Source: Escherichia coli O157:H7 (GTDB taxonomy: Bacteria > Pseudomonadota > Gammaproteobacteria > Enterobacterales > Enterobacteriaceae). Taken from it: a stretch of DNA of 64,000 nucleotides. The position numbers were made by a program. The DNA is taken from NCBI RefSeq assembly GCF_013167455.1, contig NZ_CP038328.1. One strand, 5' to 3'. Each line of letters begins with the position of its first letter. Position 1 is the stretch's first letter. Of the stretch, positions 21,001-24,000 are shown piece after piece.

Positions 21001-24000
21001 ACTCGCCTATTGAAATGCTGCTTACCATGCGATTTTGATAAAGGCATTTAGCAATAAGAGTTGATTTTAACATTCACCCTCCTGAGGGTTGGTAATTAAG
21101 GAGTTCTCCACGGGTGAAGTGGAGTGCGTGCGCCGGACACGGGTGAACATCCGGCACTGACAGTTTACTGAAAGGATATTTCTCTGAAAAGTCAGAGCAT
21201 AACGCGAAAGCGCACGGCGAGGTTGCTGGTTCATAGATAGCCTGTCGTTAAATTTTCGTCGACCGTGCGCTTCCGGTTGTGGCACTCCGCGAAATGGCGC
21301 AGCGGTAAGTATGGCGGGGTTATTCCTTCCCCGTTGAGGACACCGGGTTGTCAGGTTGACCATACGCTTAAGTGACAACCCCGCTGCAACGCCCTCTGTT
21401 ATCAATTTTCTGGTGACGTTTGGCGGCATCTGTTTGCCCATGAACTGATGTCCGCCCTTTTTAAAGTGAATTTTGTGATGCAGTGAATGCGGCTAAGCGC
21501 ACGCGGAACAGTTAAAGCTAAAAACAGTGTTATGGGTGGATTCTCTGTATCCGGCGTTAATTGTTAACTGGTTAACGTCACCTGGAGGCACCAGGCACCG
21601 CATCACAAAATTCATTGTTGAGGACGCGATAATGGAAACGTTATTACCAAACGTTAATACGTCTGAAGGTTGTTTTGAAATTGGTGTCACTATCAGTAAC
21701 CCTGTATTTACTGAAGATGCCATTAACAAGAGAAAACACGAACGGGAGTTATTAAATAAAATATGCATTCTTTCAATGCTGGCCCGTTTACGTCCGATAC
21801 AAAAAGGATGCTGGCAATGAATACAGCATTTGCACTTGTTCTGACAGTTTTTCTTGTTTCCGGAGAGCCAGTTGATATTGCAGTCAGTGTTCACAGGACA
21901 ATGCAGGAGTGTGTGACTGCAGCAACCGAACAGAAAATTCCCGGTAACTGTTACCCTGTCGATAAAGTTATTCACCAGGATAATAACGAAATCCCGGCAG
22001 GTCTTTAAAACAGTTCCGTAATAAACATCCGATTTCATTCTTATATGCCAGCAATGGCAGGGATTTGTTCACCCTTAAATCTGTAATGAGGTAAAACAAA
22101 ATGAGTAAAGTCTTTATTTGCGCCGCCATTCCGGACGAACAGGCAATAAAGGAAGAAGGTGCAGTCGCTGTAGCCACTGCCATTGAAGCCGGTGATGAAC
22201 GTCGCGCCCGCGCAAAATTTCACTGGCAATTCCTGGAGCATTATCCGGCTGCTCAGGACTGCGCTTATAAATTTCTTGTTTGCGAGGATAAACCCGGTAT
22301 ACCCCGCCCTGCCCTCGATTCCTGGGATGCTGAATATATGCAGGAAAACCGCTGGGATGAGGGGGCTGCTTCCTTTGTCCCGGTTGAGACTGAATCCGAT
22401 CCGATGAACGTCGCTTTTGACAAGCTGGCCCCTGAAGTACAGAACGCTGTCATGGTTAAGTTCGACACATGTGAAAACATCACCGTTGATATGGTGATTA
22501 GCGCGCAGGAATTGTTGCAGGAAGACATGGCAACATTCGACGGACATATCGTTGAAGCGTTGATGAAAATGCCAGAAGTTAACGCCATGTATCCGGAGCT
22601 TAAGCTGCATGCCATCGGGTGGGTTAAGCATAAATGTAAGCCTGGTGCCAAATGGCCCGAAATTCAGGCAGAAATGCGCATCTGGAAAAAACGTCGCGAA
22701 GGTGAACGCAAGGAAACCGGAAAATACACGTCTGTTGTTGATCTCGCCCGCGCCAGAGTCCACCGACAGCACACTGAAAACTCAGCAGAAAAAATCCCCC
22801 CTGTCACTGCAGTCATTCGTCGCGAATATAAGCAGACATGGAAAACACTGGATGACGAACTGGCCTACGCTCTCTGGCCTGGTGATGTGGATGCCGGAAA
22901 CATTGACGGCAGCATCCATCGCTGGGCAAAAAATGAAGTTATCGACAACGACCGCGAAGACTGGAAGCGTATCTCGGCATCAATGCGCAAACAGCCTGAT
23001 GCCCTTCGCTACGACCGCCAGACTATTTTTGGCCTTGTCCGTGAACGTCCGATCGACATTCACAAAGACCCTGTGGCACTGAACAAATACATTACTGAAT
23101 ACCTGACTACAAAGGGCGTGTTTGAAGATGAAGGAACAAATCAGAGCGCAACTGACACTCTCTCGTCGCCAGTACCAGAAACTGATGCAGTGGAAACGGC
23201 AATTCCGGACAACGAAAAAACCGAATGCAAAGTGGAAGTCGAACCATCTGTAGAGCGTGAGGGGCCGTTCTACTTCCTCTTCACCGACAAGGATGGCGAA
23301 AAATACGGTCGCGCAAACAAACTTTCTGGTCTGGATAAGGCGCTGGCTGCCGGGGCTACTGAAATCACAAAAGAAGAATATTTTGCCCGAAAAAATGGCA
23401 CATACACAGGCTTACCGCAAAATGCAAATACCGCACAAAATTCTGAACAACCAGAACCGGTAAAAGTTACCGCTGACGAAGTAAAGAAAATTATGCAGGC
23501 AGCCAATATCAGCCAGCCTGACGCCAATCAGTTGCTCGCCGCATCACGTGGTGAATTTGTTGCAGGGATTAGCGACCCGAATGATCCGAAATGGGTGAAG
23601 GGGATTGAAACCCGCGATTCTGTGAACCAGAACCAGCAAGAAACGGAACAGAACGACCAGAAAGCGGAACAAAACAGCCCAAATACGCAACAAAACGAGC
23701 CAGAAACGAAACAACCTGAGCCAGTAGCGCAACAGGAACCGGAAAAAGTCTGCACCGCCTGCGGTCAGACCGGCGGCGGCAACTGCCCTGATTGTGGCGC
23801 GGTGATGGGCGACGCAACATACCAGGAAACATTCGATGAAGAGTATCAGGTTGAAGTTCAGGAAGATGATCCGGAGGAAATGGAAGGCGCTGAACATCCA
23901 CACAAGGAGAACACTGACGGCAATCAGCATCACGATAGCGATAATGAAACTGGCGAGACGGCAGATCACTCAATTAAGGTGAACGGTCATCAAGAAATCA

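Follow-up and report, generated by a model that had tools for sequence, protein, structure and literature searches.

What RNA is made from the roughly 320 nucleotides (nt) immediately 5' to the small RNA (sRNA) gene dicF in a prophage of Escherichia coli O157:H7? The window analyzed here is a 64,000-nt stretch of contig NZ_CP038328.1 (assembly GCF_013167455.1), in which a first-pass annotation had recognized a DicF homolog at 21407-21462 preceded by a highly structured leader. Very probably the locus is that of dicF in a Qin-like prophage of an O157:H7-type E. coli genome, where it belongs to the early (dicBF) operon under DicA repression, and within the same strong judgement we include the order of events proposed for the leader: RNase III cleavage, refolding, RNase E cleavage, and a 3' end supplied by a terminator. 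The locus and its RNase III/RNase E processing have already been characterized, and in that respect the finding is a known one; the K-12 dicF locus, a ydfABC-dicF-dicB-ydfD operon, was reportedly described by Faubladier in 1990, as relayed by later papers, and was taken up again by Balasubramanian (2016) and Ragunathan (2023). The only fresh point of the locus is a junction and pseudoknot domain within the leader that has clear structural support and no assigned function. With it, the body of the ~190-nt DicF precursor becomes a covariation-supported folded domain, not a loose spacer.

The experiments on processing were done in K-12, where both RNases are required and species of 190, 72 and 53 nt are found. 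The 190-nt DicF species is absent without RNase III and builds up on RNase E inactivation; the 5' end of this ~190-nt form is due to RNase III, and that of the 53-nt form to RNase E (PMC10448788). The elements of the window on which the corresponding steps would act are these:

21087-21406, plus strand: non-coding leader, homologous to the K-12 ydfC-dicF spacer (~96% identity, no gaps)
21198-21220 (5' strand) and 21259-21281 (3' strand), plus strand: interrupted helix of ~21 bp with a variable apex (RNAalifold), a putative RNase III substrate
21270-21274, plus strand: predicted RNase III cleavage giving the 5' end of ~190-nt pre-DicF (K-12 product length, gap-free alignment)
21276-21390, plus strand: four-way-junction domain of ~115 nt (MAFFT and covariance model (CM) alignments, covariation)
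21395-21410, plus strand: single-stranded AU-rich linker UCUGUUAUCAAUUUUC, identical to K-12, with a putative RNase E cleavage giving the DicF 5' end
21407-21462, plus strand: DicF allele, 56 nt including the U-tract (Rfam RF00039, K-12 alignment)
21422-21462, plus strand: intrinsic terminator, bipartite hairpin GGCGG...CCGCC followed by U5 (fold)
21467-21485 and 21596-21614, plus strand: 19-bp stem enclosing an STnc100-like structure (inverted repeat, 95% complementary)

On the model that we favor, the ~320-nt stretch 5' to DicF would be untranslated RNA inside a polycistronic transcript. RNase III would cut the 21198-21281 helix near 21270-21274, removing the upstream mRNA and leaving a ~190-nt precursor. 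The freed segment GUUGUGG (21276-21282) would then pair with CUGCAAC (21384-21390) and close a pseudoknot-locked junction that forms the precursor body; its most likely role would be that of a scaffold that sets up or stabilizes the precursor for RNase E. Cleavage by RNase E in the AU-rich, single-stranded linker from the domain to DicF would free an sRNA of ~56 nt, and the intrinsic terminator of the sRNA itself would set the 3' end. In read-through transcripts, RNase III would make another cut before dicB, in the 19-bp stem (21467-21614).

The homology on which this model leans is extensive. When the alignment to the K-12 ydfC-dicF region proposed by the first-pass annotation was run, it extended without gaps over 21087-21406 at ~96% identity; across 21087-21480, identity to K-12 Qin is 94-96%. 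From 21087 onward most complete E. coli genomes match (K-12 derivatives at 94.5%), and the chromosome of E. coli O157:H7 PV15-279 is 100% identical over 20860-21480. In K-12 Qin the homologous unannotated stretch lies directly 3' to ydfC; in NC_000913, dicF occupies 1649382-1649434, 340 nt past the ydfC stop. The plus strand of 21080-21465 folds to -149.1 kcal/mol (z = -3.5; none of 100 shuffles matched this), and the minus strand has z = -2.9. A promoter scan detected no promoter-like site on the plus strand of the leader, and no internal promoter was found in the K-12 dicF leader either (PMC10448788).

Two long perfect stems had been singled out at first pass as consistent with RNase III/RNase E processing sites. 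An inverted-repeat search recovered both in the places given: the 10-bp stem pairs AAGCGCACGG (21208-21217) with CCGTGCGCTT (21263-21272), and the 9-bp stem pairs GGGTTGTCA (21345-21353) with TGACAACCC (21373-21381). As processing sites they part company. The first falls within the helix that K-12 product length marks as the RNase III substrate, whereas the second is no known cleavage site but arm P4 of the junction domain. Likewise, the expectation of an RNase III stem was sound, but the predicted RNase E site is not a stem; it corresponds to the single-stranded AU-rich linker at ~21395-21410.

RNAalifold applied to 20 diverse copies of the leader gave the full RNase III helix as CAUAAC-CG-AAGCGCACGG-CGA (21198-21220) opposite UCG-CCGUGCGCUU-CG-GUUGUG (21259-21281). 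In these sequences 98.6% of cells are paired, as against 32-35% with slid partners. Among the 21 pairs, 11 are invariant, 5 show one-sided changes that keep a standard pair, 1 is compensatory (C-G to U-A in a single locus, L029) and 4 include some unpaired cells. The apex of the helix (38 columns) has been swapped wholesale between lineages and the base is invariant, a pattern compatible with a constrained double-stranded substrate. Going back 190 nt from the 3' end of DicF, or 137-141 nt upstream from its 5' end, leads to 21270-21274, in the middle of the 3' strand, and the RNase III cut in the window is predicted near this point by analogy with K-12. The leader stems are conserved across these diverse loci, a point that the first-pass annotation had left to be checked; beyond the RNase III helix, this extends to the covarying junction described below.

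The consensus structure of the junction domain contains the following elements:

21276-21282 with 21384-21390, plus strand: P1 closing stem (consensus fold)
21287-21291 with 21298-21302, plus strand: P2 hairpin (consensus fold)
21303-21306 with 21342-21345, plus strand: P3a (consensus fold)
21315-21319 with 21329-21333, plus strand: P3b (consensus fold)
21346-21356 with 21366-21380, plus strand: P4 hairpin (consensus fold), which holds the 9-bp stem, GGGUUGUCA/UGACAACCC
21309-21365, plus strand: pseudoknot of GUAUGG (21309-21314) with CCAUAC (21360-21365, in the P4 loop), 100% of cells paired

To define these elements, 28 distinct sequences were aligned with MAFFT, blind to structure, and the alignment was inspected and run through RNAalifold. 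In this alignment 93.3% of cells are paired, against 32-54% with slid partners, and 12 pairs have changed on both sides, compared with 5.7±1.5 in shuffled alignments (0 of 500 reached the observed value). A CM-fitted alignment of 41 distinct sequences gave 94.7% paired cells and 14 two-sided changes, against 6.7±1.5 in shuffles, with 0 of 500 shuffles on each of five measures. At one pseudoknot position the pair covaries (U-A in 35 sequences, C-G in 3 of the phage P1 type, U-G in another 3, and unpaired in none); the other five pairs do not vary, in part since the search patterns fixed these sequences. Loops and linkers of the domain are nearly invariant. By our own count from the per-pair table of the MAFFT alignment, ~9% of paired cells are G·U; because these would be A·C on the other strand, the plus strand is the one that folds. 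The segment GUUGUG(G) at 21276-21282 takes part in two exclusive pairings, with CAUAAC at the base of the RNase III helix or with CUGCAAC in the closing stem of the domain, and lineages that have only one of the two modules retain the segment and the matching partner.

The CM of the domain detects a single copy in the window, at 21272-21407 (149.7 bits). Rfam has no family for the domain in the window, phage P1, cdtI or F1055 copies, nor a description of it, and the phrase 'dicF-like' is scarce in the literature searched. Rfam candidates in the leader and domain were set aside as noise (mascRNA at 14 bits, a small nucleolar RNA at 15 bits and a permuted transfer-messenger RNA at 24 bits), and a likeness of the P4 loop to loop C of 5S ribosomal RNA (rRNA) was dropped when the Rfam 5S model gave no match.

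RNase E prefers A/U-rich single strands, and the sequence of the linker between the junction domain and DicF, UAUCAAUUUUC, which is the same in K-12, fits this preference. The sRNA that follows is a DicF homolog, as the first-pass annotation had it, and it is followed by dicB (21632-21820) and a DUF1482/YdfD-like gene (21817-22008) as in Qin. Its position in the operon, 3' to the ydfC-side leader and 5' to dicB, is that expected of DicF. The RF00039 model matches 21408-21457 with 43.5 bits (E = 4.8e-8 in a 901-nt search), short of the gathering score of 48, and for that reason DicF is missing from the Rfam scan of the whole window at gathering threshold. Nucleotides 1-20 are identical to K-12 and include the conserved 5' region UUUCUGGUGACGUUUGGCGG; nucleotides 21-47, the hairpin sequence, differ from K-12 with the pairing kept. 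The 3' hairpin, disruption of which would have spoken against the assignment, is intact at 21422-21456; it is bipartite, folds at -17.3 kcal/mol and is followed by U5. A simple terminator scan did not pick it up, probably owing to the interrupted stem.

Of 5426 complete E. coli genomes, 287 have the window DicF allele (at least 99% identity) and ~3545 have the K-12 type. In K-12, the 3' region of DicF pairs with ftsZ and pykA (PMC5069750). Direct reading shows that the K-12 segment GUUUUACUCCG, complementary to CGGAG..AAAC of ftsZ, is GUUUGCCCAUG in the window. Because the 5' pairing region is kept and the 3' ftsZ-pairing region is replaced, the target range here may differ from that in K-12. 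RNAduplex comparisons (whole sRNA, 16-nt windows) were uninformative on this point, since even the validated K-12 DicF-ftsZ pairing scored no better than shuffles. The window DicF is a minority allele that has the tested DicF features except the Rfam score, with the 3' target-pairing region replaced. It should be noted that ~5% of complete E. coli genomes carry this allele and that automated annotation based on RF00039 would miss it. Enterohaemorrhagic E. coli (EHEC) strains are reported to carry four dicF copies (PMC7873438), and the minority allele is relevant to work on these multiple copies.

BLAST searches against phage genomes showed the leader to be a mosaic. Positions 21086-21281 occur alone in phiSTEC1589 and PhiR5_2, and 21276-21398 alone in cdtI, Stx2c phages, Ayreon, 2H10, Salmonella phage F1055 and the record of Actinobacillus phage pPE4; 21287-21383 are found in P1, P7 and their relatives. 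The phage P1 record labels a 'dicF-like region' just 3' to the C1-controlled Pban promoter (AF234173, NC_005856). Two pattern scans of IMG/VR added more than 100 loci. A genome scan with the GC-rich motif GCGCGGCGGNAAGNATGGC returned 120 matches, real ones being those in E. albertii (two loci) and one in Citrobacter; the taxonomic range is poorly sampled because the matches are nearly all due to chance, in GC-rich genomes. In 98 of 98 loci examined, the domain is followed by a short unpaired stretch and then an intrinsic terminator, of the GGCGG...CCGCC-U5 or the GCCCA...UGGGC-U6 type. At least six seed/terminator types occur in this position (K-12 DicF, the window allele, a short-hairpin DicF, CCCAUGUUGAUUACC, cdtI, AUUGCUGUGUGUAGUC and phage P1). 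The cdtI/Stx2c-type copies, which lie a few hundred nt 3' to cI with no N-like open reading frame (ORF) between, have no DicF seed, and the P1/P7 copies likewise have none. The domain is common to Qin-like, cdtI/Stx2c-type and P1/P7 phages, where it always precedes a terminator and a short seed that can be exchanged, in early operons under repressor control.

Several individual loci depart from this arrangement. In the pPE4 record (vB_Apl-pPE4, PP818812; L126:1590-1770) two tandem copies of the seed and terminator unit follow a domain that lacks its 5' part. This region is like E. coli prophage DNA, with 84.6% identity over the domain and annotated DicA, YdaT and Kil, and the stated Actinobacillus host looks doubtful. 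Two further loci (L015 and L110) and F1055 (L127:1630-1710) have an insert of ~50 nt in the loop of the terminator hairpin; it includes a motif like AGGAG and a start codon, from which a small ORF may run through the terminator. In the IMG/VR contig L260, the domain breaks off after P3b, where a 16S rRNA 3' end and a transfer RNA (tRNA) are attached; this is probably a chimeric assembly.

A number of observations weigh against the processing model or its details. All transcript-level processing data come from K-12, which is another strain, and the RNase III position derives from a product length rather than from a mapped nucleotide. Covariation in the RNase III helix is not significant in the 20 sequences, the variation being too low (118 of 500 shuffles). 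Single-sequence minimum free energy (MFE) folds of the window 190-nt species do not contain the consensus junction, which that of cdtI recovers; these folds were not used as evidence. The window MFE fold is dominated by an alternative perfect 7-bp pairing of GCAGCGG (21299-21305) with CCGCUGC (21381-21387), and A21301 of the window forms a C·A mismatch in P2, where all the other aligned sequences but one have G. Finally, phiSTEC1589 joins the RNase III helix straight to a seed and terminator, with no domain between. Because of this phage, the domain must be a separable module that is dispensable for sRNA production, and its part as a precursor scaffold is accordingly something that we infer.

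The alternative that best survives is that the domain (21276-21390) acts in cis to control the next terminator, as a protein-independent antiterminator or attenuator that, in a function like that of HK022 put, sets how much transcription reaches dicB and the remainder of the early operon; we regard this as possible though unlikely. It would account for the place of the domain just upstream of a terminator in all 98 loci, whatever the seed between, and the near-invariant loops and linkers are as expected of a surface that binds a macromolecule. In P1 and P7 the domain starts ~20-30 nt 3' to the C1-controlled Pban, ahead of tRNA genes and tciA; ban itself presumably lies further downstream of the P1 element. 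The cdtI/Stx2c-type phages have the domain 3' to cI in the absence of an intervening N-like ORF, and phiSTEC1589, which has no domain, is the sole N-encoding phage examined. However, this link to N-less phages rests on very few independent lineages, the CM finds nothing in the immunity and early region of HK022 (at most 8.3 bits), the architecture of put is different, and in Qin the domain is more than 900 nt from the promoter. Moreover, the K-12 DicF terminator works: terminated RNAs of 1,146 and 53 nt dominate, and the 1,608-nt read-through RNA is seen only on RNase E inactivation (PMC10448788).

Somewhat less probable still is that the domain has a function of its own, in trans or through protein binding, as a freed fragment of ~135 nt with which DicF merely shares a transcription unit. 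As a mobile module with at least six downstream seed/terminator types in two unrelated phage groups (lambdoid and P1-like), and with strongly conserved unpaired nucleotides, it has features that such an RNA might show, and the two mapped cleavages, one due to RNase III and the other to RNase E, would excise it precisely. A fragment of ~135 nt is nevertheless unreported, the published northern probes being for DicF or ydfA (PMC10448788). Rfam has no family, and we know no RNA, like the domain, and no candidate partner was identified.

A broader proposal, to which we give only limited credence, is that the domain is a mobile phage RNA element acting in cis on the terminator, as an antiterminator or attenuator in N-less phages, or on sRNA maturation, and so a portable launch pad for interchangeable sRNAs. 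Were it to control termination or sRNA maturation, this would explain both the gating of dicB-type toxic genes behind a terminator and the swapping of sRNA seeds on a common scaffold.

The leader also contains a minus-strand ORF, which the first-pass annotation had called a probable artefact of the structured RNA:

21067-21441, minus strand: spurious 124-amino acid (aa) ORF (no codon signal, frame often broken)

It is highly improbable that this ORF is a true gene whose translation is coupled to that of the 77-aa gene at 20840-21073, with the stems incidental. It does overlap the start of the 77-aa gene by 7 nt, and a stop-free stretch of ~130 codons is present in K-12 and ~40% of homologs as well. 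In an alignment of 40 distinct leader homologs, however, its variable sites are spread evenly over the codon positions (60/59/58), every plus-strand frame being equally flat. Indels that shift the frame are frequent (19 of 39 homologs have +1 at 21329, and 37 of 39 have +2 at 21435), and the frame is lost in ~60% of homologs at 92-97% identity, including some that are 97% identical. Its start codon sits in the allele-specific DicF hairpin, it has no PHROG family match and no PGAP call, and the G·U pairs favor a plus-strand RNA. The ORF is an artefact, not a gene. Equally hard to credit is that the leader is decaying junk of a defective prophage with stems due to chance in GC-rich sequence: Qin-like prophages are indeed defective and the minus strand too folds better than shuffles, but the leader is conserved in inducible phages (Tritos, Evi, Stx2c phages, P1), junction covariation is significant, the basal helix is invariant under a freely replaced apex, and RNase III processing has been mapped in K-12 (PMC10448788).

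The last step of the processing model concerns the dicF-dicB spacer. A 72-nt form of DicF has a 3' end cut by RNase III in read-through transcripts (PMC5069750, PMC9438474), and an RNase III site at K-12 position 1649470 is labelled 'dicF-dicB' (PMC5371410 supplement). Counting 72 nt from the DicF 5' end leads into the 5' arm of the 19-bp stem, which is likely, by analogy with K-12, to be the second RNase III site, yielding the 3' end of 72-nt DicF. This further site 3' to DicF lies outside the coordinates that the first-pass annotation covered. The stem has one A·C mismatch in the window and is conserved in ~50 loci, where the variation is mostly wobble-compatible transitions. The spacer (21446-21651) scores 32.5 bits against STnc100 (RF02076), below the gathering score of 47. 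Ahead of dicB/kil-type genes, STnc100-like structures may recur as a unit with an enclosing long stem of the RNase III type. The P1 and phiSTEC1589 loci also give sub-threshold STnc100 matches. In cdtI (L003:1675-1765) and the Stx2c equivalents, a 13-bp inverted repeat, AACAGAGAAGAGC.../...GTTCTTCTCTGTT, lies past the terminator, parallel to the 19-bp stem downstream of DicF.

Upstream of the RNase III helix, the leader has three small hairpins:

21106-21124, plus strand: hairpin CUCCAC/GUGGAG (MFE fold)
21132-21155, plus strand: hairpin GCCGGA/UCCGGC (RNAalifold; 99% of cells paired, near invariant)
21182-21197, plus strand: hairpin CUCUGA-AAAG-UCAGAG (RNAalifold)

In the leader alignment, some prophages have another hairpin in place of the first. 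The third is CUCUGA/UCAGAG in the window and CCCUGA/UCAGGG at other loci, a U-A to C-G exchange.

The genes around the leader were taken from the PGAP calls of the 100%-identical O157:H7 record:

18867-19094, minus strand: Cro/CI-type regulator
19171-19578: helix-turn-helix (HTH) regulator
between the HTH regulator and ydfC: 99-aa gene
20214-20432: ydfC
20455-20862, plus strand: 135-aa hypothetical gene (phrog_1363)
20840-21073, minus strand: 77-aa hypothetical gene (phrog_10348)
between the 77-aa gene and dicB: unannotated gap of 558 nt
21632-21820, plus strand: dicB
21817-22008, plus strand: ydfD-like gene (DUF1482)
after the ydfD-like gene: 823-aa exonuclease gene

From their positions, the first regulator reads as the dicC homolog, K-12 dicC being located there, and the second as the dicA homolog. 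Relative to K-12 Qin, an insert of ~650 bp with two genes (window 20433-21086) separates ydfC from the leader; its genes each fall in a PHROG family of unknown function. The 77-aa gene, which has a strong AGGAGG ribosome-binding site, lies antisense to the polycistronic dicBF transcript, and a promoter for it would need to be located inside the leader.

Elsewhere in the window, a full-scoring STnc100 match (175 bits) was found on the minus strand at 7652-7860. In the surrounding region (7591-8202) it lies beside an AgvB match (56.6 bits, plus strand) and two tRNA genes (minus strand), and we take this region to be the late region of another prophage. A match to the ALIL pseudoknot (Rfam RF01497), which we take to be an IS3-family frameshift signal, is at 13329-13445 on the minus strand, and a match to the sok antitoxin RNA is at 14142-14291, also on the minus strand. 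Two tRNA matches and three RtT repeats at 50875-51609 look like the tyrT locus; presumably the prophage would then lie near tyrT.

Four known systems bear comparison with this locus. STnc100 resembles the dicF-dicB spacer, which aligns to its model end to end, with both the long outer helix and the CACCNGGAGGCACCNGGCAC hairpin; given its sub-threshold score, however, the spacer is at best a diverged relative. The likeness to HK022 put is one of position only, put (as putL and putR) being an early-operon cis RNA of an N-less lambdoid phage, ahead of terminators. It is ~70 nt long, with two stem-loops that bind the zinc-binding domain of the RNA polymerase β' subunit (PMC9378689), whereas the window domain is ~115 nt with a four-way junction and a pseudoknot. 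Homology between the two was rejected on this difference of architecture and on the lack of a CM match in the HK022 early region.

The element of P1 and P7 has the same four-way junction, scoring 109 bits with the CM, including the covarying pseudoknot position, with compensatory changes in the P3b and P4 arms and an intrinsic terminator directly after. It differs in having no RNase III helix upstream and no DicF seed; its closing stem is of another sequence and poorly defined, its terminator is GCCCAUCUUCGGGUGGGC, and the element is promoter-proximal, with tRNA genes downstream. K-12 Qin is the fullest parallel. The 99-aa gene stands here in place of K-12 ydfA and ydfB, and replacement of DicF nucleotides 21-47, which takes with it the ftsZ/pykA-pairing 3' region of the K-12 sRNA, brings the window allele under the Rfam gathering threshold. 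The two prophages nevertheless share the order dicC, dicA, ydfC, leader, dicF, spacer, dicB, ydfD, a leader that is ~96% identical and free of indels, and the RNase III helix, AU-rich RNase E linker and 19-bp downstream stem.

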